NCBI GenBank assembly: GCA_029056365.1
Contig: JAIDBM010000064.1
Location: 1 to 42,871, forward strand
Origin: Muribaculaceae bacterium
GTDB lineage: Bacteria; Bacteroidota; Bacteroidia; Bacteroidales; Muribaculaceae
Reading direction: 5' to 3'
DNA length: 42,871 nt
The notes under the pieces were generated by a model. It worked only from the letters and a program-made list of their open reading frames with translations. It did no database searches and was not told the DNA's origin. This document shows positions 177 through 16,449 of the stretch, one piece after another (position 1 is the stretch's first letter; each line of letters starts with the position of its first letter). A program made the translations under genes and the position numbers.

Positions 177-1277
177 CTAAAGGTAAGTGTCGCCGAACTT
201 GAGCTTTGCATCCGAAACCATGTTGCGAATATCCTGCTCCTCCGACTTCGGACATATCAGCAGCACATCGCCGGCATCGGCCACTATGTAATCGTTCAGA
301 CCCTGCACCACCACGAGCTTGTCGTCGCGCACAGCGAATATGTTTCCCGACGAGTCATAGCTCATCACCTTGCAGTTCTGTGTTACGTTGCCATCGGAAT
401 TCCGCGGCGAGTTGTCGTAAAGCGAACTCCAGGTGCCGAGATCCGACCATCCGAAATCAACCGTCTCGACATATACGTTCGAGGCTTTTTCCATTACAGC
501 GAAATCGATGCTTATGCTCATGCAGCCGGGAAACTCCATTTCTATGAAATCGCGCTCCGATGCGGTGCCGAAATGCCCGGCGCCCCGATCGAACACCTGG
601 GCTATCTCCGGTGCATGTTCGTGAAGCGCCCTTATGATTGAATCGGCTTTCCACAGAAATATGCCTGAATTCCAGAAAAACTCGCCGGTATCGATAAACA
701 CTTTGGCCAGCTCCACATTGGGTTTTTCGGTAAATGTCTTTACCTTGTTGATGCCAGGCTCCACTTCATCGCCTATCTGGATGTATCCGTAGCCGGTTTC
801 AGGCCGGGTAGGCTGTATTCCGAGGGTAAGCAGCGCGTCGCGGCTCTCCACAAACTCAAACCCGCGCACTATGCTGTCGCGGAAACTTTCCTCGCGGGTA
901 ATCAGATGGTCGCTCGGCGTAACCACGATTGACGCATGCGCATCACGTGCCTTGATATGATATGCGGCCCATGCAATGCAGGGAGCGGTGTTGCGCCTCG
1001 CCGGCTCAAGCAAAATTGAATTGTCGCCGAGATCAGGCAGCTGGCGTCTTACCAGTTCGGCATATGCCTCGTTCGTGACCACCAGGATGTTTTCAGCCGG
1101 AACCACCGACCGTATACGGTCGTAGCTCATCTGAAGCAGCGACCGGCCTGTTCCCAGAAAATCGATGAACTGTTTGGGCAGTCCGGTACGGCTGTACGGC
1201 CAGAACCGGCTTCCTATGCCGCCGCACATTATCACGCAGTAGCGGTGTGAACGTATTTCTTTTTCGGTATTCATCAT
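177..1277 (-). CDS. manC: Mannose-1-phosphate guanylyltransferase
   Basis: Motifs GGIGSRFWPYSR..PKQF, LEPARRNTAPCI, ETGYGYI, FTEKP, WNSGIF, SIDFAVMEK and WSDLGTW. Confidence 0.93.
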   Translation of the reverse strand: MMNTEKEIRSHRYCVIMCGGIGSRFWPYSRTGLPKQFIDFLGTGRSLLQMSYDRIRSVVPAENILVVTNEAYAELVRRQLPDLGDNSILLEPARRNTAPCIAWAAYHIKARDAHASIVVTPSDHLITREESFRDSIVRGFEFVESRDALLTLGIQPTRPETGYGYIQIGDEVEPGINKVKTFTEKPNVELAKVFIDTGEFFWNSGIFLWKADSIIRALHEHAPEIAQVFDRGAGHFGTASERDFIEMEFPGCMSISIDFAVMEKASNVYVETVDFGWSDLGTWSSLYDNSPRNSDGNVTQNCKVMSYDSSGNIFAVRDDKLVVVQGLNDYIVADAGDVLLICPKSEEQDIRNMVSDAKLKFGDTYL

Positions 1278-1308
1278 GTGTTGTATGTCGGAAAGAGAGA
1301 GTTGGGAA

Positions 1309-2769
1309 TTAATCTGTTATATTTTCGTCTGCAATTATCGTGCCGCTCTTGGCCATCGAGCGTCTGTAGCTGTAGAACAGACCGCCGAACAGGGCCGCCA
1401 CGGCCACTCCGGCACCTGTGGCTATGCCACGCGGCAGGCCGAATCCTTCGGGCGATGGAGCGAACAGCAGATATGTAACACTCACCACTGTCATGAACAG
1501 GGCCGGAACAATTGCAATAACATAGTTCTTGCCGTTACGCAGCATCCACACCGATACCGCCCAGAGCGTAAACACCGCCAGGGTCTGGTTGCACCAGGCG
1601 AAATAGCGCCACAGCACCTGGAAATCAATCTGTATCAGCAAAAATGTAACGGCAAACAGCGGAAGCGACACCAGTATGCGGCGCAGGGTGTTCTTCTGGC
1701 TTATTTTCAGAAAATCAGCTACTATAAGACGGGCCGAGCGCAATGCCGTATCGCCGGTAGTGACAGGTGCGGCAACTACGCCAAGCAGTGCCAGTATTCC
1801 GCCGAAGGCGCCAAGCCAGCCCACCGATATGTCGTTCACCAGTGTCGCGGCCGAATGGCCTTCCCGGGCCATATAGCTTTCAAGCGACCCGTATCCGCCT
1901 GTAAACGCTATGGCGGCGGCAGCCCATATCAGCGCCACGATTCCTTCGGCCACCATGGCGCCATAGAACACCGGCCGCCCGAGTTTCTCGTTTTTCATGC
2001 ACCGCGCCATCATCGGCGACTGTGTGGCATGAAATCCCGAAATCGCTCCGCAGGCTATCGACACGAACATCATCGGAAATATCGGATAACCATCGCTACG
2101 CCGACTATGCAAGCCTTCGGAAATGCCCTCGGGAATTTCCATTCCGCCAAACAGCAGGCAACACAGCAGACCCGCCGCCATGAACAGAAGCGCAAAGCCG
2201 AATACCGGATACAACGAGCCTATCAGCTTGTCGATCGGCAGCACCGTGGCGCATACATAATAGGCGAATATGACAAACACCCACAGCTCGGCAGTCATCC
2301 AGTCGGGAGTTATCCCGGCGAGTATTCCGGCCGGCGAGGTCACAAACACGGCTCCCACCATCAGCAAAAGCAACACGGAGAACACGCCCATTACGTTGCG
2401 CACTCCGCGCCCGAGCTGGCTGCCCACTATCTCGGGAAGCGACAACCCGCCCATACGCACCGAAATCATGCCCGACAGAAAATCGTGCACCGCTCCGGCG
2501 AATATAGTGCCGAGCACTATCCAAATGAACGATGCCGGACCGAACATCACACCCATTATGGCGCCGAAAATCGGACCGATACCCGCTATGTTGAGAAACT
2601 GAATCAGAAAGACCTTCCACGTCGGCATAGGCATATAATCCACTCCGTCGCAACGCGTGTAGGCGGGGGTAGGGCGCCCGGAGTCGCTGCCGAAAGCCTT
2701 CTCCACTATGGCACCATAAATGAAATAGCCGGCTATAAGCACAGCCAATGATATTAGAAATGCGGTCAC
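1309..2769 (-). CDS. cstA: Carbon starvation protein A family peptide/pyruvate transporter
   Basis: Polytopic membrane protein with QFLNIAGIGPIFG, GAVHDF, ACGAISGFHATQSP and TTGDTALRSARL. GTG start. Confidence 0.9.
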   Translation of the reverse strand: MTAFLISLAVLIAGYFIYGAIVEKAFGSDSGRPTPAYTRCDGVDYMPMPTWKVFLIQFLNIAGIGPIFGAIMGVMFGPASFIWIVLGTIFAGAVHDFLSGMISVRMGGLSLPEIVGSQLGRGVRNVMGVFSVLLLLMVGAVFVTSPAGILAGITPDWMTAELWVFVIFAYYVCATVLPIDKLIGSLYPVFGFALLFMAAGLLCCLLFGGMEIPEGISEGLHSRRSDGYPIFPMMFVSIACGAISGFHATQSPMMARCMKNEKLGRPVFYGAMVAEGIVALIWAAAAIAFTGGYGSLESYMAREGHSAATLVNDISVGWLGAFGGILALLGVVAAPVTTGDTALRSARLIVADFLKISQKNTLRRILVSLPLFAVTFLLIQIDFQVLWRYFAWCNQTLAVFTLWAVSVWMLRNGKNYVIAIVPALFMTVVSVTYLLFAPSPEGFGLPRGIATGAGVAVAALFGGLFYSYRRSMAKSGTIIADENITD

Positions 2770-2839
2770 CTGAATAAATCTGTTTGTTATTTATAGCCTG
2801 CATGCCGCCCGCAGCGACATGTACGGAAAGGCCTGATAG

Positions 2840-2870
2840 CAAAGTTAGCAATTCCGGTGGATACCACAAA
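2840..2870 (-). promoter_or_regulatory. Bacteroidetes sigma-70-type promoter for cstA-manC
   Basis: Minus strand TTTG (2867-2870), 19 nt spacer, TAACTTTG (2840-2847). Confidence 0.6.
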
Positions 2871-2905
2871 ATCAAAGTTTCATTTTAATTATTTTTAGTG
2901 CATTT

Positions 2906-2937
2906 TTTGGCCATTGTAACTATTTTGCATAACTTTG
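2906..2937 (+). promoter_or_regulatory. Bacteroidetes -33/-7 promoter for the pyrH operon
   Basis: TTTG (2906-2909), 20 nt spacer, TAACTTTG (2930-2937). Confidence 0.7.
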
Positions 2938-2955
2938 CACAAAAGCAAAGAAACT

Positions 2956-3672
2956 ATGGAAACTAAATACCGACGCATACTTCTGAAACTTAGCGGCGAA
3001 TCTCTCGCGGCCGGACAAGGTCACGGAATTGACACCGACCGCCTCGAATCATACGCCCGGCAGATAAAAGCCGCCGTCGACAGCGGAATACAGGTGGCCA
3101 TCGTGATTGGCGGAGGAAACATATTCCGCGGACTCTCCGGAGCCTCAAGAGGATTCGACCGCGTGAAAGGCGACCAGATGGGAATGCTCGCCACTGTGAT
3201 AAACTCGCTGGCGCTGAGTTCGGCGCTTTGCGCCATAGGACAGCCGGCTCAGGTTTTCACCGCCATAAACATGTTCCCCATCGGAGAACATTACAGCAAA
3301 TGGAGAGCAATCAATGCCTTGGAGAACGGGCAGATTGCCATAATTTCCGGCGGCACAGGAAATCCATTCTTCACAACCGATACCGGCTCGGCACTCAGGG
3401 CCATCGAAATCGAAGCCGATGTGATGCTGAAGGGCACAAGAGTCGACGGTGTATATACTGCCGACCCGGAAAAAGACCCCTCGGCCACAAAGTTCGCAAG
3501 CATAACCTACGACGAGGTATACAACCGTGGCCTTAAGGTTATGGACCTCACCGCCACAGCGCTGTGCAAGGAAAACAGAATGCCTATAATTGTGTTCGAC
3601 ATGGACACCCCCGGCAATCTTGCCAAAGTTCTGGCAGGAGAAGAAACCGGCACTCTTGTTTATCAGGAATAA
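2956..3672 (+). CDS. pyrH: UMP kinase
   Basis: RILLKLSGE, GGGNIFRG, DQMGMLATVIN, GTGNPFFTTD. ATG 2956 preferred over TTG 2935, which lies inside the promoter. Confidence 0.97.
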   Translation: METKYRRILLKLSGESLAAGQGHGIDTDRLESYARQIKAAVDSGIQVAIVIGGGNIFRGLSGASRGFDRVKGDQMGMLATVINSLALSSALCAIGQPAQVFTAINMFPIGEHYSKWRAINALENGQIAIISGGTGNPFFTTDTGSALRAIEIEADVMLKGTRVDGVYTADPEKDPSATKFASITYDEVYNRGLKVMDLTATALCKENRMPIIVFDMDTPGNLAKVLAGEETGTLVYQE

Positions 3673-3694
3673 TTCAAAAACATCATAAAGATAT

Positions 3695-4255
3695 ATGACT
3701 GACCCGAAAACCTACCTCGGCCCGGCTGAAGAGAAAATGGAACTCGCCGTGGCCTATCTCGACGAATCGCTGGCCCATATCCGCGCCGGAAAGGCCAACC
3801 CCAAGATTCTCGACGGAATAAGAGTGGACTATTACGGCAGCGCCGCTCCCATCAGCAACGTTGCCAACGTGAGTGTGCCCGATGCCAGAACCATTACCAT
3901 TACTCCCTGGGAGAAAAGCATGTTCAAGGAAATCGAAAAGGCCATCATCAATTCCGAACTCGGCATCACTCCTGAAAACAACGGAGAGGTTATTCGCCTG
4001 TCGATTCCGCCGCTCACCGAAGAACGCCGAAAAGCCCTCGTAAAACAGTCGAAAGCCGAGGCCGAACAGGCTAAGGTTTCGGTGCGTAACGCCCGGCGCG
4101 ATGCTATCGACGGACTGAAAAAGGCCATAAAACAGGGCATGCCCGAAGACGTGGAAAAAGACGCCGAGGCAAGCGCCCAGAAACTCCACGACAAATTCCT
4201 TAAGAAAATCGACGATCTTTTCGCCGCCAAAGAAAAAGAAATCCTCACCGTATAA
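3695..4255 (+). CDS. frr: Ribosome recycling factor
   Basis: [23 protein letters not shown]; canonical pyrH-frr synteny. Confidence 0.97.
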
Positions 4256-4875
4256 TGATTAGAAATCTGCTTTTCGATCTCGGAGGTGTGATTATGGATA
4301 TCGAACGCCGCAACTGTGTTGCGGCGTTCGAAGCGCTCGGCCTGCCAGATGCCGAATCGTTCTTCGGAGAATACTCGCAAAAAGGTGCCTTCATGCAGCT
4401 TGAGGAAGGCTCTATAAGTGTTGATGATTTCCACCGCCTCCTGCGGAATGAATTCCCTCACGACGTAACGGATTCTCAGATCGACAACGCTTTCCTGCAA
4501 TTCCTCACCGGTATACCGGAACAACGCCTGAAAGCTCTGAGGCAATTACGAAAACGCTTTGGAATTTATCTGCTGAGCAATACCAACGAAATTATGTGGA
4601 ACAGCAAAATCGCCGATGAATTCACAAAAGAAGGACTTACACGCGAAGACTACTTCGATGGCATCGTAACTTCGTTCGAAGCAAAGGCCCTAAAACCCGA
4701 TGCCCGGATATTCCGCTTTGCCGAACAGAAACTCGGCCTTATTCCATCGGAAACACTTTTCATCGACGACTCCACACGCAACCTTGAAGCCGCATCCGAA
4801 CTCGGATTCAACACCCTGCTGGTGAAACCCGGCGAAGAATTCGCCGAAAACCTGGCTCGTTACCTCAGTGTATAA
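4255..4875 (+). CDS. HAD-family phosphatase (YihX-like)
   Basis: FDLGGV motif I, LSNTN, KPD, FIDD..N; TAATG coupling with frr. Confidence 0.88.
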   Translation: MIRNLLFDLGGVIMDIERRNCVAAFEALGLPDAESFFGEYSQKGAFMQLEEGSISVDDFHRLLRNEFPHDVTDSQIDNAFLQFLTGIPEQRLKALRQLRKRFGIYLLSNTNEIMWNSKIADEFTKEGLTREDYFDGIVTSFEAKALKPDARIFRFAEQKLGLIPSETLFIDDSTRNLEAASELGFNTLLVKPGEEFAENLARYLSV

Positions 4876-5758
4876 ATTCGCTGCCATAGGAATGTTCGAC
4901 GGCGTACATCTGGGCCACAGACACCTGTGGAAACAGATTGGCCTTATGTGCGCCGACAGCGGCGCATCGTCATTAGCCGTAACGTTCCGCAACCATCCGC
5001 TGGAACTCATAGCGCCGCAAAAAGCGCCGCTGTCGCTCGGGCCGGTCGACCAACGGGCCGCACTCCTGCGGCAGGCCGGGGCCGACAATGTTCTCATTCT
5101 CGATTTCACACCGGAACTGCGAATGCTCTCCGCCGCCGAATTCGTCAACCTCCTCGCCGACAAATATGCTGTAACCCACATGGTTGTCGGCTTCAACAAC
5201 AGTATCGGCAGCGACCGAGTGTCAACCCCGGAAGCATACGCCCTACTGGCCCAACAGACCCATGTGCACATCTATCCGGCAGAGGAATTACGCATCGAAG
5301 GGATGGAGCGCATAAGCAGCTCCGCCATAAGAAAAGCTCTCGCGACAGGCCACATCGACACCGCCAACAGCATGCTCGGACGCAACTACAGCATAAGCGG
5401 TGTTGTTTCACACGGCCAACAGCTCGGACGCACAATCGGCTTCCCTACTGCCAATATCGTGCCCGACGACTCCCGCCAGGCCTTACCTGCCCCCGGAGTA
5501 TACGCCCTCGATGCCATTCTGCCCGACGGAACTTCCCGACGGGCCATGGCCAATATCGGTAAACGACCTACCGTCGAATCCAGCACCGACGCCCCCATCA
5601 CATTCGAAGTGAACATCTTCGACTTCGAAGGCGACCTATATGGCAAAAACCTTAACGTACATTTTCTGAAACGACTGCGCGATGAACAGCGTTTCGACTC
5701 CCTCGAAGCCCTGCGTAATCGTCTTGAAGAAGACCGACATCAGGCCATAAGCCTGTAA
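4868..5758 (+). CDS. ribF: Bifunctional riboflavin kinase/FAD synthetase
   Basis: GMFDGVHLGH, ISSSAIR, GRTIGFPTAN, NIGKRPT, RLRDEQRF. Confidence 0.95.
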   Translation: MYKFAAIGMFDGVHLGHRHLWKQIGLMCADSGASSLAVTFRNHPLELIAPQKAPLSLGPVDQRAALLRQAGADNVLILDFTPELRMLSAAEFVNLLADKYAVTHMVVGFNNSIGSDRVSTPEAYALLAQQTHVHIYPAEELRIEGMERISSSAIRKALATGHIDTANSMLGRNYSISGVVSHGQQLGRTIGFPTANIVPDDSRQALPAPGVYALDAILPDGTSRRAMANIGKRPTVESSTDAPITFEVNIFDFEGDLYGKNLNVHFLKRLRDEQRFDSLEALRNRLEEDRHQAISL

Positions 5759-5826
5759 TGCCGGCGCTTATAGTATTTCGAAAAAAAACATTATATTTGC
5801 AACTTGAACCGGAAAAGCATGTAGAA

Positions 5827-7392
5827 ATGGAAATGCCCAACTACCCCATCGGAAAACAATCATTTGCGGACATCCGACAAAACGGCTACTTATACATTGA
5901 TAAGACAGCATTTATACCGCTGCTGCTTAAAAATGGATCCTTCAAATTTCTGAGTCGTCCCCGGCGCTTCGGAAAAAGCCTGCTCATTTCTACGCTCGAA
6001 GCCTATTTCACCAACAAACGTGACCTTTTCAAAGGCCTCGCCATCGATCGAATGCAACCTGAGCCTTGGCAGGAATATACAGTATTGCATTTCGATTTCT
6101 CCGGACACAATTACAACCAAGCCAAAATTCTAAATCATTCCCTGAAAAGTAAATTGTCGGAGTATGAGCACAGCCTCGGAATAAATCCAGACGAAGATGA
6201 CGATATATCGCTTCGTTTTCATCGTATCGTTCGTACTTCGTACGAACGCACCGGACGCGGCGTTGTGATTCTGATTGATGAATATGATAATCCAATTACC
6301 TCGGCGATTGACAACCCGGAACTTCAGGACGAGTTGCGCAAAATTCTCTACGGCTTCTACTCTTCGTTCAAGTCGCTCGACCAATACATACATTTCTGTA
6401 TACTGACGGGCGTGACCAAATACGGCAAGATGTCGGTATTCAGCGGTCTTAACAATCTGAAAGACATTTCATTCCTCGATAAATTCGCCGGTATATGCGG
6501 AATTACAGAGGCAGAGCTTCTCGAAAATCTCAATCCTGGAGTAGAAGAACTTGCCAAAAAACTCAATGTTACGACCAACGAGGCTTACAATAGACTGAAA
6601 GTCCATTACGATGGTTACCATTTTTCGGAAGGTTTGATTGATATATACAATCCTTTCAGCATTATCAATGCTTTGTCTGATTCCAAAATTTTGAACTATT
6701 GGGCCGCGACCGGAACTCCTACAATGCTAATAAAGCTACTGAAGGCCCACGACTTTGACATCAGCAAGCTAAATGGCGCAGAAGCGTCTTTGGATGAGTT
6801 AGGCAACATCTACGGGCCGCAAATCAATCCCAAAGCACTCTTCTATCAGACAGGCTATCTGACAATAAAAAGCTACGACCCTGAATATCAATCGTACTTT
6901 CTCAGCTTCCCTAACCTTGAAGTTGAAAGAACTTTTATGGATAATCTCCTCGAAATCTACACTGAGGAGAATACCAACCCTATTGCGAAAGAGATTCCGC
7001 GAGCTCTACGACGTGGGGATGTCAAAAGCGTTATTGCTCTCCTGAAGTCCTTCCTTTCTGGCATTCCGTTTGATCTTCGCAAGCGGGTTGCCAAGTATGA
7101 AAATTATTATCACACAATACTATATGCCATTTTCTCCCTAATTGGCACCGAGGTTGCTGCCGAATATCATACCGCCCGTGGCAGCATCGACATGATAATA
7201 CGCACGAATGATTACATCTATATCCTCGAACTGAAAGTCAACGGCACCGCCGAAGAAGCCATCGCGCAGATTCGTGAGAAGGGCTACGCCGAACCTTTCG
7301 CCACAGACCCCCGCAAAACTATCCTCATTGGCCTCGGTTTCAGCAAAGACTCCAATACAATTACATCCGACAAGGTTGAGCCGGAGATTTGA
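5827..7392 (+). CDS. AAA-ATPase-like protein with C-terminal PD-(D/E)XK nuclease domain
   Basis: PIGKQSF..YIDKT, Walker A RPRRFGKS, Walker B ILIDEYD, C-terminal IDM..ILELK. Start likely 5827 or 5833, after TATATTTG (5792-5799). Confidence 0.88.
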   Translation: MEMPNYPIGKQSFADIRQNGYLYIDKTAFIPLLLKNGSFKFLSRPRRFGKSLLISTLEAYFTNKRDLFKGLAIDRMQPEPWQEYTVLHFDFSGHNYNQAKILNHSLKSKLSEYEHSLGINPDEDDDISLRFHRIVRTSYERTGRGVVILIDEYDNPITSAIDNPELQDELRKILYGFYSSFKSLDQYIHFCILTGVTKYGKMSVFSGLNNLKDISFLDKFAGICGITEAELLENLNPGVEELAKKLNVTTNEAYNRLKVHYDGYHFSEGLIDIYNPFSIINALSDSKILNYWAATGTPTMLIKLLKAHDFDISKLNGAEASLDELGNIYGPQINPKALFYQTGYLTIKSYDPEYQSYFLSFPNLEVERTFMDNLLEIYTEENTNPIAKEIPRALRRGDVKSVIALLKSFLSGIPFDLRKRVAKYENYYHTILYAIFSLIGTEVAAEYHTARGSIDMIIRTNDYIYILELKVNGTAEEAIAQIREKGYAEPFATDPRKTILIGLGFSKDSNTITSDKVEPEI

Positions 7393-7546
7393 CACCATGG
7401 TTTTCAGTAGATGAAAAAACTACCATATTACGATACCACCATAGCCTTGTCGGTAATGCTCCTCATGGTATATCCATGAATATGCAGGTTGACAATATGC
7501 GCATTAAAACGCCGGATGTCTGCCGAATTATTTGTAACTTTGTTGC

Positions 7547-9280
7547 ATGAAACGCATAGTTGGCATATTGATATTGATTGTTGTTCTGCTTTCCGCCTGC
7601 GGTGGAGGAGATGTGAGCCGCAGGATGGATTTGGCAGACTCCCTGATGGAAGAATGGCCTGATTCAGCACTATGCATACTTCAATCAATTGACTCAGCGA
7701 AAATTGACGGTAAATCACAATATGCCCGATATGCCCTGCTTACCACTCAGGCTCGCGTAAAAAACGACATCCTCAACCTCTCCGACACCTCTGCCCTGCC
7801 ACATCTGGACTACTACCGCGACAACGGATCCGACTTCGACCGCATGCGGGCAGCGTTCTATAAGGCGCAGATTTATGGCTTGACCAATAATAATTCTGAA
7901 AGAATTCTCAATCTTCTGTCCGCGGAAGATTTCGCTAAGGAAGTCAACGACCAATACTGGCTCGCAAAAGTGTATGAGCAGAAAGCAAGATTATATAACA
8001 GTACGGGGTATCTGCAAGAATCTGTAAACGATGCTTATAAAGCAATTGCGCTTTATCACCTGCACTCAAAAAAACTCAATGAAGCATTTCTTTACTGCGA
8101 TATTGCTACAATCTACTATAATTTTTCTAAATACAAAGAATCGGAAGTTATGCTTGACAGCATACAACTCCTCTTTGACAAAGAACTTGGAGAGTCGGAA
8201 TATCTCCGGGCTTACTTTTGGGATATAACCATTTCCAACCTGATTGCCAAAGGTAATTATAAAAAGGCAGATTCCGTTAATAAGCATTTGGAAGCTTTAA
8301 ACATAATAAAAGATTCCCATATGCTCAAAAACGACCTCTTTTTAAAAATCAATGGCGATACAACCGGAATCAGCACTGATCTGAAAGAATTTAAAAAGCT
8401 TTGTACAACAGAGCCTCTATTAACTGCCTATTATCAGATTTCTTATAACTACGAATTCCTTCGCGGAAACATACAGGGCGCTAAAGCATTTGTAGACAGC
8501 GCAATATATTTTCATGATATTGCTGTTCGAGAAGCCTTAAGACAATCTGTCATCGCCACACAGCTGGATGCACAGATTCAGAAAAGCTATCAGCTCAAAC
8601 AAAAAAATCAATGGTTGCTATATATCTCATTGTCATTGATTATTGCCATACTGATTTCTTTTATATATTATCGTTTGAACATCATACGAATTCAGAATAA
8701 AAAAGATTCAACAGTAAACGAGATTTCTGCCCAACTCGCAAAGCAGCATCTGATTACAGACGGTTACAAAAAAGAAATAGCGTCACTGAATCAGGATTTA
8801 GGAATTTCAAAAGTAAAAATAAAAGACCTTGAAGATTCGAACGCAAGATTTAGCACAGAGTATAATCGATTAGCTATACCGGATATTCTTGTATCTCAAT
8901 CCAACACTCTGGCAACAGCCTGTCTGAAATATATCGACAGCATCGACAAAAATGAAAAAAATGCCACTTATGATGAGATACAGTCTATTCTTCGGAGTCT
9001 GATCTCAGAAAATTCATTGTTGTTACAAGAAAAACAAATCAATGAAACATACAATGACATTCTAATCAATTTCAAAAATGACTTCCCTAAAATCTATAGG
9101 GATAATCGCGAACTGATAGTATTCATGTTCACAAAAACCAAACCGAGACTGATTTCCGTTATATTGCAAAAACCGGAACAGACTATCTATACCAAACGTA
9201 AGAGAATTATAGAAGAAATTCGCAAATCAGATTTTTCAAAAAAAGATATATACCTGAAAGCATTTGGACACAATCATTAG
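7547..9280 (+). CDS. Membrane-anchored TPR sensor / C-terminal HTH (LuxR-like) one-component regulator
   Basis: Lipobox LSAC, then a TPR-like helical region, a TM helix (WLLYISLSLIIAILISFIYY), a coiled coil and C-terminal ISVILQKPEQTIYTKRKRI. Confidence 0.72.
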   Translation: MKRIVGILILIVVLLSACGGGDVSRRMDLADSLMEEWPDSALCILQSIDSAKIDGKSQYARYALLTTQARVKNDILNLSDTSALPHLDYYRDNGSDFDRMRAAFYKAQIYGLTNNNSERILNLLSAEDFAKEVNDQYWLAKVYEQKARLYNSTGYLQESVNDAYKAIALYHLHSKKLNEAFLYCDIATIYYNFSKYKESEVMLDSIQLLFDKELGESEYLRAYFWDITISNLIAKGNYKKADSVNKHLEALNIIKDSHMLKNDLFLKINGDTTGISTDLKEFKKLCTTEPLLTAYYQISYNYEFLRGNIQGAKAFVDSAIYFHDIAVREALRQSVIATQLDAQIQKSYQLKQKNQWLLYISLSLIIAILISFIYYRLNIIRIQNKKDSTVNEISAQLAKQHLITDGYKKEIASLNQDLGISKVKIKDLEDSNARFSTEYNRLAIPDILVSQSNTLATACLKYIDSIDKNEKNATYDEIQSILRSLISENSLLLQEKQINETYNDILINFKNDFPKIYRDNRELIVFMFTKTKPRLISVILQKPEQTIYTKRKRIIEEIRKSDFSKKDIYLKAFGHNH

Positions 9281-9373
9281 ATTTATTCGTGATACACCTG
9301 ATGATTAACAATATTTAACCTATATTCATTATTCAAAAGCACTTTAAAGGCCCTGATAATATGCCACTTGCGT

Positions 9374-9391
9374 TTTGAATAATTATTCAAA
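9374..9391. promoter_or_regulatory. Perfect 18-bp palindrome, candidate operator
   Basis: TTTGAATAATTATTCAAA; a degenerate second copy TTTGAATAATTGTT lies at 9427-9440. Confidence 0.45.
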
Positions 9392-9454
9392 TTCATGCCT
9401 ACTGATTTACAGATAGTTACAGGAGATTTGAATAATTGTTTTTTGAGCAAAACA

Positions 9455-9486
9455 TTTGGAAAAGTATTTTGCTGCCACTAAATTTG
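9455..9486 (+). promoter_or_regulatory. -33/-7 promoter of the DUF3244-like/RiPP operon
   Basis: TTTG (9455-9458), 20 nt spacer, TAAATTTG (9479-9486). Confidence 0.65.
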
Positions 9487-9505
9487 CGGCAAAACACAAA
9501 GAAAT

Positions 9506-9892
9506 ATGAAACACAAGAAACTAATCTTCGGCCTTTTGTTTTTGCAATCATCCTTTCTGGCTGTGAACGCCGACACCCCAAGTGGCCCCACTGGAAGCGT
9601 GGGAGCGGGATCAATACCGATATGGCCAAAAGAGGGTCCAACAAAGGGGCGTCCCAAGACACCCTCCGCCCAGCGGGTGGAAGCCTTCTACGAAGACGGC
9701 TACCTGTATCTGAACTTCAAATACAGCGAAGGCCCGGCGGTATTGTATGTATATGATTCCGCCCAGACATCACTACGTAGCCAGACTGTATTCCACACCG
9801 ACTCCGAAGCTGCCTTATACATCGGCAACCTATACGATGCATACATCCTAATCATGACCTCCAATGGTCATGAGTATGAGGGATGGATATAA
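9506..9892 (+). CDS. Secreted DUF3244-like small beta-sandwich protein
   Basis: Signal peptide, Pro/Gly-rich linker ending RPKTP, C-terminal YILIMTSNGHEYEGWI; lies downstream of a TPR regulator, as is usual for this family. Confidence 0.6.
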   Translation: MKHKKLIFGLLFLQSSFLAVNADTPSGPTGSVGAGSIPIWPKEGPTKGRPKTPSAQRVEAFYEDGYLYLNFKYSEGPAVLYVYDSAQTSLRSQTVFHTDSEAALYIGNLYDAYILIMTSNGHEYEGWI

Positions 9893-9949
9893 ATAATCAA
9901 CGCTGTCTAATCAATGGACAGTAATTTGTTAACCCTTAAAAATTTTCCT

Positions 9950-10207
9950 ATGGAGAAATTTTTCCTTAAGGTTCTTCATGAAGAACCGGTAACAGATTTA
10001 TCTCTGCAAGAACTTGTTGGTGGGGGCTGCTGGATAAATGTATGCATTAAGTACAACGCAGATTGTACTTGCTACAATGACAGTAGTTATATCATATGCG
10101 CTGATTTCTGTTCATTGGACTCAGTGGAAAGATGCCCTGGTGATTGTGATGGTCTGAGACCTCTATGCCCTCCTGTCACAACAATCGGAGATGGAGAAAT
10201 TCATTAA
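9950..10207 (+). CDS. Cys-rich RiPP precursor peptide with double-glycine leader
   Basis: Leader MEKFFLKVLHEEPVTDLSLQELVGG, then a 60-aa core with 9 Cys. Adjacent to a radical SAM enzyme and near a C39 transporter. Alternative start at 9914. Confidence 0.85.
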   Translation: MEKFFLKVLHEEPVTDLSLQELVGGGCWINVCIKYNADCTCYNDSSYIICADFCSLDSVERCPGDCDGLRPLCPPVTTIGDGEIH

Positions 10208-10213
10208 TCCAAT

Positions 10214-10259
10214 AAAAGTTACATTATGGCATCGAAACCGATGCCATAATGTAACTTTT
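10214..10259 (+). terminator. Perfect 21-bp stem-loop between precursor and maturase (attenuator/mRNA stabiliser)
   Basis: AAAAGTTACATTATGGCATCG-AAAC-CGATGCCATAATGTAACTTTT. Confidence 0.75.
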
Positions 10260-10272
10260 CAACAAAATCTAT

Positions 10273-11565
10273 ATGGAACTCTCAATATATAGCATTACAT
10301 TTGTAGAAAACGGAAAATTCTATTTGTATAACTCTCAGACCAATTTCTTTTCTGAAATATCTGAGGAGTTATATAAGTCGCTTAAAAACCGTACATGGCA
10401 GGAGCTTCCTGAGTCAGTAATAGAGCAACTTATATCAAAGAAGATTATAGTGAATAGCGCCTCAAAATACGACTACTATAACCTTAAGCGATTGCAATTT
10501 AATGCCCAAAAGTACAACACCGGTTGCTTGGGTCTCGTTATAGTGCCTACTACAGCATGCAATTTCGCCTGTCCTTATTGTTTTGAGCCCAAAAAGGACC
10601 CTAAAACCATAACTGCTCCAATAATAGACGACCTACAAAAATTTATCAAATCGTTTGTCGGTGCACATAATATTGATTTGACATGGTATGGCGGTGAACC
10701 CCTTTTAGCTTTTAATCAAATAAAAGACATCTATAGAATGCTGACCGAAGACGGAATGCCCGAAATAAAGGCTCATTCTATTGTTACAAACGGATATCTG
10801 TTCACTGAAGAAGTCATTGACTTCTTTAAAGGAAAAAAACTGGGCAATATACAGATTACTATTGATGGCAGTAAGGAACATCATAATACAACACGCTGTC
10901 TTAAGGCTGGTCAAAAACCTACATTTGATGTAATTATCAACAATATCGAGTTGATTTTACAGCATATGCCCGAGACGATTCTTGCCATAAGGGTAAATGT
11001 CAAGAAATCAAATCTTATAGAATATCTGCATCTGTTAGAATATTTCAACAAGAAATATCCTGACAACAAAAAGCTTAACATATATCCAGGTCTCATAAGA
11101 GAAGAAACTCCGGATAAGAAATCACTCACGTGCGACTGTTTTTCATCAGAAGACGTATCAGACCTTAACCAGTTGATAAAGGAAGCCGGCTATAGCGCAA
11201 ATATATTTCCTAAACGACAACATCGTGGATGCATGGCTCAATCCTTGAATTCATATATAATAGGCCCGGAAGGAGAACTATACAAATGCTGGAATGATGT
11301 GTCAAACCCAAATATGGTTATCGGCAACATTTCTTCCATGGATACGAGCGGAAGTACTCGATTACTGAACTTTATGACCGAATCGACACCATTCGATGCA
11401 AAATGTAAAATATGCCATGCCTTCCCTATATGTGACGGTGGATGTGCATATTACCGTCTGCGGAACCTGAAGGAAAATGCATGCTTTCCAGTCTGCTCGT
11501 CTTTCAAGGATATTGAGAAGCTCAAACGAGCACTATTCAATGGTGTAAAACCCGAACTGATATAA
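10273..11565 (+). CDS. Radical SAM/SPASM peptide maturase
   Basis: CNFACPYC (CX3CX2C), WYGGEPLL, TNG, QITIDG. SPASM GCMA..YKCW..CKICHAFPICDGGC..C..C. The ~85-aa N-terminal extension could be an RRE. Confidence 0.92.
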   Translation: MELSIYSITFVENGKFYLYNSQTNFFSEISEELYKSLKNRTWQELPESVIEQLISKKIIVNSASKYDYYNLKRLQFNAQKYNTGCLGLVIVPTTACNFACPYCFEPKKDPKTITAPIIDDLQKFIKSFVGAHNIDLTWYGGEPLLAFNQIKDIYRMLTEDGMPEIKAHSIVTNGYLFTEEVIDFFKGKKLGNIQITIDGSKEHHNTTRCLKAGQKPTFDVIINNIELILQHMPETILAIRVNVKKSNLIEYLHLLEYFNKKYPDNKKLNIYPGLIREETPDKKSLTCDCFSSEDVSDLNQLIKEAGYSANIFPKRQHRGCMAQSLNSYIIGPEGELYKCWNDVSNPNMVIGNISSMDTSGSTRLLNFMTESTPFDAKCKICHAFPICDGGCAYYRLRNLKENACFPVCSSFKDIEKLKRALFNGVKPELI

Positions 11566-11633
11566 AATCACAATTATCTCATTAGTTCCTTTGATGTTTT
11601 ATATATTTGCAATAATTTTAAAACAGAAATAAG

Positions 11634-13973
11634 ATGAAAAGTTGGAAAGACATAGTGCTAAGATTTATAGTGTTGTTGGTTCTATTCAATGGCATGCTTT
11701 GTGTTTCGGCATATGACATAAAGGTACGAATACAAATAAAAGAAACTAACGAACCTCTGTCCGAGTTTGTGCCGATTTTTTGTACGAAAGACGGCCACGA
11801 AAATTATGGCAAGGGAGTACTGCAGGCCGACAGCACCTTTTTAATTAAATACATGCCGGACAGAGGAAACTATACTATAGTATACACGATAGGAGATACG
11901 CATTACGGAAATCCTATAACGTTGCCGCGTGATACAGTGGTAAATATTTTTGTTCCTGAGAGGTTATTGCCAGAGTCCACAGAAGCCGAAGAACTCGGAG
12001 AACTTAAAGTTGAAGGCCATAGCCGTTATATCAATGGCAACCAGATTACGTTCATACCAACCAAAGATGAAAAAAAAATATCTCGCGGAGGTATCGAACT
12101 GATACGAACAATGGCGCTCGCCGACCTGTATGTCGATCCCATGTCGAAAACTGTCACTACAGCCTCGGGTAACGGCGTAGCGTTTTTTATTGATATGCAA
12201 CCGGCTACGCAGGTAGAGGTTGATATGTTGCGTGCCATGGACATACAGACTGTTGAATATTTCGAGTCGCCATCCGACCCTCGTTTTCATGGAGCACGGT
12301 ATGCTATAAATTACGTTCTTGTGAAATATGATTATGGCGGATATACAATCTTTAGTGGCCAGCAGAATTTCATACAGAATTATGGAGACTATCGCATGTA
12401 CTCACGTTATACAAAGGGGAAGATGCTCTATGATTTAGGCGGTGGATTCAACTATGCGAGCGATTCACACATCGGAAGCGACAAGCTGAGCGTTTACAAC
12501 TTTCCCGACTTCCCGCTGGAAAAACACTCAATCAGCGATGGTGCATCAGCAAGCAAACGAACAGGCTATGGAACGCTGAGGGCTACATATCAAAGCCAAA
12601 AAGTCAATATTGCAAATACGTTGAGTCTTTCAGGTGCAAACACGCCTCATAGCCTCTCACACAGTCTTGTAAATTACAATCCGGCCTTATTCCCGGAGGA
12701 AGAAAGCCGAAGATATTCCCACAACAGCAACCTTAGCGCTGTATGGAGCGGCAACTATTTTTTTGAGCTTCCCGCCGATTTCTCACTTACGGTCACTCCC
12801 ACTGCCTCGTATTCCAAATTCAGAAATGCATACTCCTTCTCCGAAGGCAGTACATTCCATAATGATTCGCGCGACAAATCATGGAAATATAATCTTCTGG
12901 CAGAGTTATATAAGAAATTTGGCAATATGAGTATTGGTGCCAGATTATCTACAGAAGGAAGTGGCAACTCAGTAACTTATACAGGTACCGAATCATCCAA
13001 GTCACACGGGCATACTCAGGGAGGTCTTGCCAATCTTTCGGCCAATTTTGAATTTGGCAAGTTATGGGGTGCTATAAACGCTGGCGTAAAATTCTCTTCG
13101 CAGACTGTTTCTGGTTTAAATTATAAATCGGTATCGCCGTCTTATTTCTTTCAGACAGGATATAACTTCAGCCGTCAAAGCAGCATTAACATGTTTTCCA
13201 ACTATACGCCATATACAGTGCCGATGAGCCAGAAGACCGACAATTTTGTTCTCCGCGATAAATTGGATGGAGTACGTGGCAATCCATCACTAAAGAACGG
13301 ACAGTTCTTCAATATTGGATTACAGTACAGATATATGCCTAACCGGATTATAAGTCTGTCAGCCTTCTGGACCTTCACCCGCACGAGTAATATGATCATA
13401 GACAGATATACTACAGAAATTTACCAAGGCTATCCGATAATGGTACGTAGCTGGCTTAACCACGGCTTCATGAACCATCACAACTACGGGTTAAACCTTT
13501 CGGTAAAATGTCTGAATTCCAAACTGCGACTTAACGGCGGTATACGCGGAAATAGTGTTGCACGCCATTCGATGCAGAACTACAGCGCCACACATCTTGA
13601 TTTCTTTGGCCAGGCTTTGTATATGTTCGGTCAGTTCTATGCCTCGGCATCATATAATTACCACCGTACAAATATCGGCAATTCATCGATAAGCAAGTCT
13701 CCATCTTATTATAGTATGGTTGTTGGCTGGGGCAACGGTAACTGGAACATATCGGCTACAGCATTCAATCCTTCTGTAGGTAATTACAAATCGAGATATT
13801 CGCTGATTGATACACCTGAGTTCAGCTCTCGTACTCAGAGCTATTCATCGTCATACCATCGGCTGTTTGTGTTGAATGTGTCGTATTCATTCTCCTATGG
13901 AAAAAAGGTAAATCAAACCAATCAGGTCGGTCAGCTTCAGGGCGGAGCCTCCGGCATACTTGATTACGAGTAA
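11634..13973 (+). CDS. Outer-membrane beta-barrel protein, TonB-dependent-receptor-like
   Basis: Signal peptide, N-terminal beta domain, plug-like segment (FFIDMQP..VEY..P..RF..AINYV), Ser/Tyr/Asn/Gly-rich amphipathic strands, LNVSYSF near the C-terminus. Confidence 0.75.
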   Translation: MKSWKDIVLRFIVLLVLFNGMLCVSAYDIKVRIQIKETNEPLSEFVPIFCTKDGHENYGKGVLQADSTFLIKYMPDRGNYTIVYTIGDTHYGNPITLPRDTVVNIFVPERLLPESTEAEELGELKVEGHSRYINGNQITFIPTKDEKKISRGGIELIRTMALADLYVDPMSKTVTTASGNGVAFFIDMQPATQVEVDMLRAMDIQTVEYFESPSDPRFHGARYAINYVLVKYDYGGYTIFSGQQNFIQNYGDYRMYSRYTKGKMLYDLGGGFNYASDSHIGSDKLSVYNFPDFPLEKHSISDGASASKRTGYGTLRATYQSQKVNIANTLSLSGANTPHSLSHSLVNYNPALFPEEESRRYSHNSNLSAVWSGNYFFELPADFSLTVTPTASYSKFRNAYSFSEGSTFHNDSRDKSWKYNLLAELYKKFGNMSIGARLSTEGSGNSVTYTGTESSKSHGHTQGGLANLSANFEFGKLWGAINAGVKFSSQTVSGLNYKSVSPSYFFQTGYNFSRQSSINMFSNYTPYTVPMSQKTDNFVLRDKLDGVRGNPSLKNGQFFNIGLQYRYMPNRIISLSAFWTFTRTSNMIIDRYTTEIYQGYPIMVRSWLNHGFMNHHNYGLNLSVKCLNSKLRLNGGIRGNSVARHSMQNYSATHLDFFGQALYMFGQFYASASYNYHRTNIGNSSISKSPSYYSMVVGWGNGNWNISATAFNPSVGNYKSRYSLIDTPEFSSRTQSYSSSYHRLFVLNVSYSFSYGKKVNQTNQVGQLQGGASGILDYE

Positions 13974-16162
13974 TGAAATTCAAGCTGATACGCCAGCTGG
14001 AAACAATGCAGTGTGGCGCTGCGTGTCTGGCAATGATATGTACGGCCCTCGGTATGCCCGTTTCCTTACGGAGGGCCGACAGATTGTGCGGTGCTTCCAA
14101 GCAGGGTGTATCAATGCTTGCAATTTCAAAGTCGGCATCGTCATTAGGCCTTGAAAATGCTACGGTTAAACTTACTGTCGAGAGGCTGTGCCAAATGCCG
14201 TTGCCTTGTGTTTTGCATTGGGATCAAAACCACTTTGTGGTGCTGCATAAAGTTTCGGACAATGGTCGCAAATTCCATATAGCTGACCCCGGTAAAGGAA
14301 AGACCACATACTCCAGAGCTGAACTCGAAGAGCATTGGATTAGTTCATCTACAGGCGATGACGAAAAGGGCATTGCCATGTTTTTCAATCCCACGGAATC
14401 GTTCTTCAGGATGCCCAAGGAGGAGCAATCGAGCGGCATAAATGTTGCCGAATTGTGGGGTTTTATAACCAGGCACAAGAAGTATTTTCTTCAGATACTT
14501 CTCGGCCTTCTGGTGGCTTGCCTGATGCAACTGATAATGCCGTTTCTCACACAAGCCATAGTGGACGCGGGCATAAAAAACTCATCGATTAAACTCATAT
14601 GGCTGATTCTGCTCGGTGAACTTATAATCATCATAGGACGTACCCTCACAGAATTCACCCGGAGCTGGTTGCTGCTCCATCTGTCGATGCGCCTGAACTT
14701 GTCGCTGCTCAACAGTTTCTTTCTTAAGTTGATGAAGCTTCCGATGAGTTTCTTCGACATTCGGAAATCAGGCGATATCATCCAGCGCATGTCTGACCAT
14801 GGACGTATTCGAAGCTTCCTCACTTCTCAGTTGCTGGGAGTAATATTCACTGTCGTCAGCCTGCTGGTATTCAGCGTAACTCTTCTGATTTACAGCCGAC
14901 TCATATTTGTGGTGTTCTTAGGCATGAGCATAATCTATATTCTGTGGGTGGTGCTGTTCCTGAACAGGCGGCGTATTATCGATTATGAAAGTTTCTCTGC
15001 TTCAGCCAAAAGTCAGGATATGACTTTTCAGTTTGTCAACTCCATGCAGGAAATCAAGCTGCAGAGCTGTCAGGAACGGCGTCGCAGCGAATGGGAAGAC
15101 ATGCAAATAGAGCTGTTTGAGGTTCAGATGAAATCGTTGAAACTTCAGCAAACTCAGGAAGCCGGAGCCTTGTTTATCAACGAACTGAAAAACATTCTTA
15201 TAACCGTTTTGGCGGCATCCGCAGTCATAAGCGGGCAATTTACTCTCGGCGCCATGCTGGCTGTACAGTATATTATCGGCCAGCTGAACTCCCCTCTAAG
15301 CCAGCTGATCGGATTCATATACTCCATGCAGGACGTAAAAATCTCACTGGAGCGAATCAACGAAATACACAGCTATGATAACGAGAACCGGAACAAGGTG
15401 AATGTTGCCCCGGTTATTACCAATCCTGAAATAGAATTTCGCAATGTGAGTTTCAGATACGACAAGTATTCGCCGAAGCTTACAATCGATGATGTCAGTT
15501 TCTCCATTCCTGCCGGAAAGGTAACCGCTATTGTCGGAGCCTCGGGCAGCGGCAAAACCACTCTGCTGAAACTGATGCTGGGTTACTATTGCCCTGAAAG
15601 CGGGAGTATATTAGTGTCAGGCCATGACCTGAATAATTATAATCGCGAGTCCTGGCGGTCGAACTGCGGAGTCGTGATGCAGGATGGAGTTATTTTTTCG
15701 GATACGATAGCCCGTAATATCGCGGCCACTGACGGACCGGTTGACCTTGATCGTCTGAAATATGCCGCCACCCTGGCTAACGTGCATGAATACGTAATGG
15801 CCATGCCCTTGAAATACAACACTCAAATCGGTAAAGACGGCATGGGTTTAAGTCAAGGTCAGAAGCAGCGCATTCTTATTGCCCGGGCAATCTACCGTAA
15901 TCCCAAGTTTATTTTTCTTGACGAGGCTACAAACGCTCTGGATGCCTGTAATGAAAAAGAAATAATTGAGAAGCTGGATGATTTCTTTCGAGGGCGTACG
16001 GTAGTGGTCATCGCCCACCGTCTTTCAACCGTAAGAAATGCCGACCAGATATTGGTAATCGACAATGGTAAAATATCAGAGTGTGGAACTCACACAGAGT
16101 TGATTCACTCAAAAGGTATATATTACAATCTGATAAAAAATCAATTGGAATTAGGAACATGA
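13973..16162 (+). CDS. Peptidase C39-containing ABC transporter (PCAT, SunT/LanT-like)
   Basis: C39 residues QCGAACLAM, HWDQNHFVV and IADP; TMD; Walker A GASGSGKTT, signature LSQGQKQR, IFLDE, AHRLST. Confidence 0.95.
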   Translation: MKFKLIRQLETMQCGAACLAMICTALGMPVSLRRADRLCGASKQGVSMLAISKSASSLGLENATVKLTVERLCQMPLPCVLHWDQNHFVVLHKVSDNGRKFHIADPGKGKTTYSRAELEEHWISSSTGDDEKGIAMFFNPTESFFRMPKEEQSSGINVAELWGFITRHKKYFLQILLGLLVACLMQLIMPFLTQAIVDAGIKNSSIKLIWLILLGELIIIIGRTLTEFTRSWLLLHLSMRLNLSLLNSFFLKLMKLPMSFFDIRKSGDIIQRMSDHGRIRSFLTSQLLGVIFTVVSLLVFSVTLLIYSRLIFVVFLGMSIIYILWVVLFLNRRRIIDYESFSASAKSQDMTFQFVNSMQEIKLQSCQERRRSEWEDMQIELFEVQMKSLKLQQTQEAGALFINELKNILITVLAASAVISGQFTLGAMLAVQYIIGQLNSPLSQLIGFIYSMQDVKISLERINEIHSYDNENRNKVNVAPVITNPEIEFRNVSFRYDKYSPKLTIDDVSFSIPAGKVTAIVGASGSGKTTLLKLMLGYYCPESGSILVSGHDLNNYNRESWRSNCGVVMQDGVIFSDTIARNIAATDGPVDLDRLKYAATLANVHEYVMAMPLKYNTQIGKDGMGLSQGQKQRILIARAIYRNPKFIFLDEATNALDACNEKEIIEKLDDFFRGRTVVVIAHRLSTVRNADQILVIDNGKISECGTHTELIHSKGIYYNLIKNQLELGT

Positions 16163-16317
16163 AAAAAGATTCTGACCATGAAATATTTCTCATTCCCCAA
16201 AAGCCGTTGCGCCGGCTCAAGGATATTCCCCGAAAGATTTATATCGGAGGTTATTTATCCATATTCCTGGCGCTGGCCGCTTTAATTATTGTATATATCT
16301 TCTTGTCTACTTTTTGA
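16159..16317 (+). CDS. 52-aa single-TM protein resembling the N-terminus of a HlyD-family adaptor (stub or truncated)
   Basis: ATGA overlap with the PCAT stop; IPRKIYIGG followed by a hydrophobic helix; no periplasmic domain. Confidence 0.5.
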   Translation: MKKDSDHEIFLIPQKPLRRLKDIPRKIYIGGYLSIFLALAALIIVYIFLSTF

Positions 16318-16349: not shown

Positions 16350-16364
16350 GAGCAAACCGGCTCT

Positions 16365-16449
16365 AATTTGGCTGTGAGGGAATAATTCATCGGATTAAAT
16401 TTGGCTGTGAGGGAATAATCCATAAGATTAAATTTGGCTGTGAGGGAAT
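16365..16449. repeat. 33-bp tandem repeat (2 full units + 1 partial)
   Basis: AATTTGGCTGTGAGGGAAT starts at 16365, 16398 and 16431; intervening sequences are AATTCATCGGATTA and AATCCATAAGATTA. Confidence 0.92.

Follow-up and report, generated by a model that had tools for sequence, protein, structure and literature searches.

The window, that is the whole stretch of 42,871 nucleotides analysed here, carries on its forward strand a gene cassette in which a short Cys-rich precursor is followed by a radical SAM maturase, an outer-membrane protein and a peptidase-containing transporter:

7547..9280, + strand: TPR-like protein, 577 aa, with a predicted membrane segment (weak Pfam TPR-type match, E 0.003, below the cut-off)
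9506..9892, + strand: signal-peptide protein of no known family, 128 aa, upstream of the precursor
9950..10207, + strand: precursor ORF, 85 aa (25-aa leader and 60-aa core)
9950..10024, + strand: double-Gly leader, 25 aa
10025..10207, + strand: core, 60 aa and stop codon, nine Cys
10028, 10043, 10064, 10070 and 10097, + strand: starts of the Cys motifs CWIN, CIKY, CTCY, CYND and CADF
10109, 10133, 10145 and 10166, + strand: starts of the Cys motifs CSLD, CPGD, CDGL and CPPV
10214..10259, + strand: perfect 21-bp hairpin between precursor and maturase
10273..11565, + strand: radical SAM maturase, 430 aa, with an N-terminal RRE-type fold, CxxxCxxC and seven SPASM Cys
11634..13973, + strand: outer-membrane protein, 779 aa, with a predicted TonB-dependent-transporter fold (N-terminal beta domain, plug and large barrel)
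13973..16162, + strand: C39 peptidase-containing ABC transporter (PCAT; PF03412, PF00664 and PF00005 above cut-off)
16159..16317, + strand: 52-aa ORF with a hydrophobic tail, overlapping the PCAT stop

The precursor gene lies within a low-GC block. Its sequence is no assembly error, since one contig from another sample taken in that study (run X2) spans 9533-11700 and has the same gene with one synonymous change. The leader has every residue of the GG consensus named in the original prediction (V-12, T-11, L-7, L-4, G-2 and G-1), with the GG placed at residues 24-25 of the precursor by close homologues that have just two Gly. The nine-Cys core likewise contains all the motifs singled out there (CWIN, NADC, CYND, CSLD and CPGD). 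In five homologues the leader is near-identical while the cores diverge. Leader identity is correlated with maturase identity (Spearman 0.51, n=103, kin not being independent), and the correlation is weaker for the core (0.21, with the same dependence among kin). The query gave no match to the GG-Bacteroidales precursor model TIGR04149 (cut-off 25 bits), for which the best of 15 precursors reached 16.5 bits, and none to NF038108 (CefA; precursor cut-off 30). The thresholds of the precursor family models were reached by none of the 15 precursors tested.

Could the Cys of the core simply be paired or hold a metal? The odd Cys count on which the original prediction dwelt is real in the query and common in the family, where 156 cores divide into 78 odd and 78 even. 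This parity ruled out an all-disulfide peptide, and the deduction that not all Cys are in disulfides is probably right. The alternative was an acidic, Cys-rich metal-binding peptide. The query core has a net charge of -6, while the family median is -1 and just 7 of 109 cores are at -5 or below, which rules out acidity as a family trait.

Of the remaining genes, the 577-aa TPR-like protein has relatives by tblastn in 17 of 204 loci, the flanks being short, and is likely a regulator of the cassette. The 128-aa signal-peptide protein gave no Pfam or NCBIfam match and has matches in 5 of 204 loci. The hairpin between precursor and maturase (-31.3 kcal/mol, z -10.6, equalled in 0 of 200 shuffles) likely sets the precursor-to-enzyme mRNA ratio; a hairpin of -15 kcal/mol or lower lies within 70 nt of 62 of 106 family precursors, a raw count taken without a shuffled control. 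The model of the 779-aa protein (pLDDT 82.6) has as its top Foldseek matches only TonB-dependent transporters (E about 1e-17); PF14905 is matched by 3 of 16 aligned relatives, and relatives occur in 41 of 204 loci. In L001, the locus with the closest maturase, two outer-membrane paralogues (728-3067 and 5380-7725, 50% and 76% identical to the 779-aa protein) flank the precursor-maturase pair on both sides. The PCAT is predicted to cut after the GG and to export the core. The 52-aa ORF, without a tblastn match in the 204 loci, is possibly the remnant of a membrane-fusion protein, at the place where one is expected, and export across the outer membrane may rely on genes elsewhere. At the end of the low-GC block, at 16364-16449, a short direct repeat occurs three times at intervals of about 37 bases. 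A promoter and terminator scan gave a result near chance.

With an RRE-bearing radical SAM/SPASM maturase beside a Cys-rich precursor, the locus has the anatomy of the ranthipeptide class. The predicted model of the maturase (pLDDT 89.6) has three strands followed by helices at its N-terminus, as in an RRE-type fold, and among solved structures the thioether synthase CteB (5WHY/5WGG) is the closest. CxxxCxxC and the seven SPASM Cys are invariant among 124 non-redundant maturase relatives, and a precursor adjoins 100 of the 124. The best NCBIfam matches are TIGR04334 (208.6 bits, cut-off 600), TIGR04463 (204.7, cut-off 525) and NF038107 (198.3, cut-off 600), cut-offs reached by none of the 15 relatives tested; the PapB-type model NF047865 gives 112.8 bits, below its cut-off of 340. 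No threshold of a named family was reached among those tested (TIGR04463, TIGR04334, CefA/CefB, PapB, NxxC and TIGR04149). A fourth NCBIfam match, FlmE/OhkG, was discarded, as it belongs to arginase clusters and the consulted part of PMC12703449 is silent on radical SAM enzymes. The CefB cut-off was exceeded in none of 401 genomes of the phylum, and 30 loci from that search were left out of the statistics, few recognisable precursors being present in their short flanks. Among genomes sampled from the host family, 26 of 400 contain a relative of the maturase (E 1e-60 or better), and among those from the order 12 of 400 do (E 1e-55 or better); the best named close relatives are Muribaculaceae.

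The residues in catalytic proximity, mapped through CteB, are F104, Y139, V171, T196, W340 and N341 (FYVTWN). Four of the six, compared by eye, are identical to those of CrpC (FFVTWE), and one of the six is identical to that of CteB (FFTSHQ); the relatives L106 and L110 have FFVTWE. Trp occupies the position equivalent to 340 in 120 of 124 relatives and Asn that equivalent to 341 in 108 of 124. We infer that these two positions are equivalent to H377 and R378 of PapB, which are modelled to grip Asp (PMC10739248); Trp and Asn there would fit a loss of carboxylate specificity.

The original prediction read the core as a recurring CxxD/N pattern. To what extent does it exceed chance? When the Cys positions were held and the remaining residues shuffled, 421 of 5000 shuffles matched the Asp at +3 of three of the nine Cys, a count that rose to 2865 (p=0.57) when any offset from -6 to +6 was allowed; for Asp or Asn (four of nine) the counts were 313 and 2109. 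The narrow pattern is thus not above chance in the query. For the wider class Asn, Asp, His, Phe, Tyr or Trp, found at +3 of seven of the nine Cys, they were 13 and 45 of 5000. CIKY, CTCY and CADF, overlooked in the earlier reading, also fit this register.

Nor is Asp at +3 conserved among homologous precursors. In L001, whose maturase is 81% identical to that of the query, CSLD and CPGD retain their Asp (as CTID and CLRD), CYND has Gly at +3, and CWIN lacks its Cys. Family-wide, Asp follows at Cys+3 in 43 of 572 cases (41.8 expected), and in 17 of 257 (17.6 expected) in a held-out set collected by leader only. It is enriched only near the query, in five same-leader homologues (7 of 47, 2.4 expected) and in the near clade (15 of 140, 8.4 expected). 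The registers of the two thioether systems invoked earlier fail as well, with Asn at -3, as in NxxC, in 38 of 394 cases (40.5 expected) and Asp at +4, as in the freyrasin/PapB-type CX3D, in 16 of 376 (25.6 expected). CxxD, NxxC and CX3D were therefore all dropped as family motifs. Of the supposed CX2D ring the register survives and the Asp-specific acceptor does not: the family rule is the broader spacing C-x-x-[N/Y/H/F/W/D].

For the family-wide analysis, precursors were collected as small ORFs beside maturase relatives with a leader HMM, whose seeds needed three Cys and could have any neighbours. Of 104 HMM hits, 14 that lacked a GG or had under two Cys were removed; with five further proteins added, this gave a discovery set of 95 precursors, or 73 cores at less than 60% core identity, a few of them from outside Bacteroidota; the precursors of L014 and L026 were missed. 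A metagenome scan with the precursor alignment gave 596 pattern matches, none of them confirmed, and was then repeated with the maturase. The class N/D/H/F/Y/W was picked after inspection of the data and then tested on held-out sets. In the 73 discovery cores it follows at +3 in 243 of 418 cases against 120.5 expected (z 14.9, 0 of 1000 shuffles), made up of aromatics (118, 48.5 expected), Asn (93, 42.7 expected) and Asp (32, 29.1 expected). No other offset comes near; the next best, -2 (z 4.6), likely echoes the Cys-every-fifth spacing seen in some members.

The first held-out set came from 92 new loci, where 21 of 99 hits were dropped and 26 cores were less than 50% identical to earlier ones. 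It gave a positive but weak result (48 of 107, 34.3 expected, z 3.3, 1 of 1000), and offset -1 was nearly as strong (z 2.6; aromatics at -1, z 3.4). The second was retrieved with a profile of the leaders plus three columns, searched over 1.84 billion proteins; it comprised 67 hits, six of them dropped, with 47 new cores taken without genomic context and a few apparently frameshifted ORFs kept. Here the class follows in 143 of 257 cases (76.4 expected, z 10.3), with aromatics at 53 (26.7 expected) and Asn at 73 (31.9 expected). When each maturase cluster was represented by a single peptide, 43 exceeded expectation and 7 fell short of it at less than 50% identity; at less than 45% the numbers were 27 and 7. 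Controls had no such bias (995 non-precursor ORFs, 803 against 762.6 expected; 1567 genome ORFs, 2804 against 2864).

Within the register, the position of a Cys matters. In CxC pairs of the second held-out set the first Cys fits in 62 of 65 cases and the second in 4 of 65; isolated Cys have the signal too (77 of 125, 37.2 expected). The class is depleted at +2, and +1 has no consistent signal beyond the CxC echo. Among 663 donor-type Cys, His (3.2-fold), Tyr (2.9-fold), Asn (2.6-fold), Phe (2.0-fold) and Trp (1.7-fold) are enriched at +3, with Asn the commonest (179 of 663), whereas Gly (0.40), Ala (0.46), Thr (0.26), Ser (0.19), Ile (0.20), Pro (0.12) and also Val are depleted. Mutational drift would not explain such a set, for a single transition turns Asn into Ser, which is depleted, whereas Tyr and His, reached by transversions, are enriched. 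Asx and aromatic acceptors are mixed within one core in 58 of 156 cores, which implies a single mechanism. The class is absent at +3 of 228 of the 663 Cys, about a third, and pairing among the leftover, predicted free Cys was abandoned as unsupported (61 odd against 48 even or none).

Some subclades stand outside the rule. L049, L067, L092 and L017 have Lys, Arg or Gln at +3, which suggests that the register was retained and the acceptor type changed; L104 and L195 have Gly. In L030, L045, L051, L053 and L076, Tannerella records included, the core upstream of the maturase has a single Cys and then a His-His motif, and the maturases have Thr at the third proximity position (YYTTWN), so that to judge by these sequences the chemistry may be different. 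L073 is an Oscillospiraceae maturase that reaches 577 bits against TIGR04334 (cut-off 600); four Clo7bot-like precursors lie in tandem downstream of it.

What would the enzyme do with such a spacing? The gene anatomy, enzyme domains, metal-binding Cys and spacing statistics observed here are interpreted by analogy with CrpC, NxxcB and PapB, from which the chemistry is taken. On this basis we favour, at a probability of roughly 55%, a pathway in which the sulfur of Cys i would be joined to the beta-carbon of residue i+3, aromatic residues included, before export by the PCAT. By analogy, the leader would be bound by the RRE of the maturase, the substrate thiol would be held on the open iron of auxiliary cluster I, and the 5'-deoxyadenosyl radical would abstract a beta-hydrogen of residue i+3, to whose beta-carbon the cluster-bound thiol would couple. 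The products would be four-residue, 13-membered ranthionine rings, about six of them in the query (on Asn, Tyr, Tyr, Phe, Asp and Asp), and the second Cys of a CxC would stay within the ring, free for a disulfide or a metal. The PCAT is then predicted to remove the leader and export the stapled core. In core numbering the predicted assignments, all on the + strand, are:

C2-N5, C7-Y10, C14-Y17, C25-F28, C29-D32 and C37-D40: predicted donor-acceptor pairs
C16 (second Cys of the CxC): predicted free
C41 and C48: uncertain

There are six pairs and not seven because CYND is on the second Cys of a CxC, where its fit to the register is probably incidental. In each of the favoured +3 residues the beta-CH2 adjoins an sp2 carbon, be it of an amide, a carboxylate or a ring, which would stabilise a beta radical. 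Precedent exists in dynobactin for beta-carbon radicals on Asn and Tyr (PMC11002830) and in NxxcB for a beta-thioether from Cys to Asn (PMC9389541). Against this reading, the motifs of CrpC have Met, Asp, Asp and Val at +3, none of them aromatic (PMC13692751), and PapB fails to crosslink His at the acceptor site (PMC10739248).

Alternatively, with the same pairing of i and i+3, the sulfur could be joined to the alpha-carbon, giving an unnested type-2 sactipeptide like streptosactin with its four-residue rings. Such sactionine rings are known (PMC9389541), alpha attack tolerates varied side chains, and Lys, Arg and Leu do occur at +3. Proximity profiling places the alpha-thioether enzymes GggB and QmpB among the ranthisynthases (PMC10288494), so the proximity profile cannot fix alpha or beta. 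Gly, Ala, Ser and Thr are common sactionine acceptors. Yet these four are depleted at +3 (0.19-0.46x), and the depletion of Gly, Ala, Thr, Ser, Ile and Pro fits beta-attack better. The links made by CrpC, moreover, fragmented unlike sactionines (PMC13692751). We regard attack on the alpha-carbon as unlikely. It is about as improbable that the +3 residue is a determinant of recognition or stacking, for instance against W340, with the chemistry at +1, at +2 or on the Cys itself, or that the ring is attacked directly to give an aryl thioether. This would agree with the near-invariance of W340 and with CrpC, whose links were located no more closely than to a stretch of four residues and whose motifs are modified with Val or Met at +3 (PMC13692751); it sits badly with the depletion of the class at +2 and the lack of a consistent signal at +1 apart from the CxC echo, and ring attack leaves out Asn, the commonest residue at +3.

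The two remaining explanations are less probable still. That the peptide is left unmodified, as a disulfide or metal-binding peptide in which the +3 bias has a structural cause, namely Asn-Gly turns in CxCN motifs, and which, once loaded with metal, is re-imported by the TonB-dependent-fold protein, would suit the CxC-N-G common in the near clade, the fold predicted for the neighbour, the acidic query core and the upregulation of Crp proteins on pyrite (PMC13692751). We consider it a poor candidate, because isolated Cys have an equal signal, aromatics are as enriched as Asn, neither Cys parity nor acidity in the family agrees with it and most maturases have a precursor next to them. Metal binding by thiols left after stapling is possible. 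A PapB-like enzyme making Cys-Asp beta-thioethers specifically at CX2D (CYND, CSLD and CPGD) is very improbable. The Asp of CSLD and CPGD is retained in L001, Asp is enriched in the same-leader homologues, CrpC modifies CAVD and PCAGD (PMC13692751) and PapB takes CX2D in vitro (PMC9413430); but Asp lacks enrichment family-wide, CYND falls at the latter Cys of a CxC pair and lacks conservation, no CxxD occurs in close relatives (L005 has Phe at +3 of all four Cys and is Asp-free) and Trp/Asn appear to have taken the place of the His/Arg carboxylate clamp.

Returning to i to i+3 beta-thioethers, the closest known system is that of CrpA/CrpC. CrpC (TIGR04463, from Methanococcus voltae) installs ranthionine-type links in CAGM, CAVD, PCAGD and CPLV, with acceptors narrowed to the four-residue motifs only (PMC13692751, 2026). 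Both enzymes are RRE-radical SAM-SPASM proteins with seven SPASM Cys, TIGR04463 is the second-best NCBIfam match of the maturase, motifs are shared along with the four proximity residues counted by eye, and Cys stands before the acceptor in a four-residue motif (C-X-X-Q/D in PMC13692751). The query maturase nevertheless scores 204.7 bits where TIGR04463 demands 525, and CrpA is a 298-aa protein whereas here an 85-aa GG-leader peptide is accompanied by a PCAT and an outer-membrane partner, unlike the large protein substrate with repeated Cys motifs that characterises TIGR04463. The +3 residue is mainly Asn or aromatic here and Asp or Gln there. No Bacteroidales names were found in the consulted portion of the CrpA homologue table (PMC13692751 supplement). 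The system would work like a CrpC-type ranthipeptide system, yet is below the thresholds of every named family tested.

Freyrasin (PapA/PapB) also has Cys N-terminal to the acceptor, multiple beta-thioethers and a radical SAM/SPASM enzyme, but its register is CX3D, carboxylate-dependent and closed to His, and Asp at +4 is depleted here. NxxcA/NxxcB forms four-residue beta-thioethers on Asn and tolerates other acceptors, but there Asn precedes Cys, an offset (-3) not enriched here. Clo7bot (TIGR04334) and CefA/CefB (NF038107/8) supply the best and third-best models for the maturase and have small Cys-rich precursors, but 0 of 15 relatives reach the cut-offs and no precursor model is matched; no chemical characterisation of either family was found in the open-access literature. 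Uncharacterised radical SAM-PCAT clusters of gut Bacteroidales (PMC9389541, PMC10352776) share the GG precursor, the radical SAM enzyme, the TonB-dependent or outer-membrane protein and the PCAT, but the leaders of the BGC1 and BGC2 precursors differ from that of the query; the consulted parts of these two papers propose no acceptor register or chemistry, and that of PMC9062424 has no passage on this precursor/maturase family.

In the original prediction CX2D rings would be a different ring register. Such a ring has precedents, for CrpC modifies two CxxD motifs (PMC13692751) and PapB accepts spacers of 0-6 residues in vitro (PMC9413430). No description of a C-x-x-[Asn/aromatic] rule or of Cys-to-aromatic beta-thioethers was found in the open-access literature, together with the few subscription papers covered. 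The thioether acceptors named in the consulted parts of PMC13692751, PMC11002830 and PMC9389541 are Asp, Glu, Thr and Asn. Tentatively, and with less confidence than in the pathway itself, the family may represent a radiation of CrpC-like radical SAM enzymes, widespread in Bacteroidales and so far without a name, that install tandem four-residue beta-thioethers on the benzylic carbon of Tyr, Phe, His or Trp, on Asn and on Asp, with a Trp/Asn pocket in place of the carboxylate clamp of PapB. If the aromatic beta-thioethers are true, they would be a new type of ranthipeptide linkage (Cys-S-C-beta of aromatic residues), made by a naturally promiscuous stapling enzyme, and the peptides would form a large, cryptic gut-microbiome family served by TonB-dependent-fold receptors of its own. 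By predicting links on Tyr, Phe, His and Trp, the rule makes this orphan enzyme group testable, with named pairs and with the natural Asp-free substrates of L005 and L110, the latter having only Asn, His, Phe or Tyr as acceptor residues. A stapler acting from i to i+3 across diverse side chains would, if real, be a useful tool for peptide macrocyclisation.

What the peptides are for is a matter of balance. The hypervariable cores with a conserved leader, the regulator-like gene and the divergent TonB-dependent-fold protein favour a strain-specific signal or antagonism peptide, a role to which we give about even odds; it is somewhat likelier than a metal carrier, which we hold to be rather unlikely. 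Given how often maturase relatives recur in the sampled genomes of the host family and of the order, the products may be widespread among gut Bacteroidales as signals or antimicrobials; class I bacteriocins of these bacteria were called elusive in 2023 (PMC10352776).

The same genome carries a second cassette of the same layout (locus L081; G000 contig C279, about 317-12076). Its precursor has 89 aa, a GG and eight Cys and does not follow the Asn/aromatic +3 rule. It is preceded by a small secreted protein, a paralogue 62% identical to the 128-aa signal-peptide protein. The cassette also holds a divergent radical SAM enzyme (27-30% identical), a PCAT and three large proteins with signal peptides.
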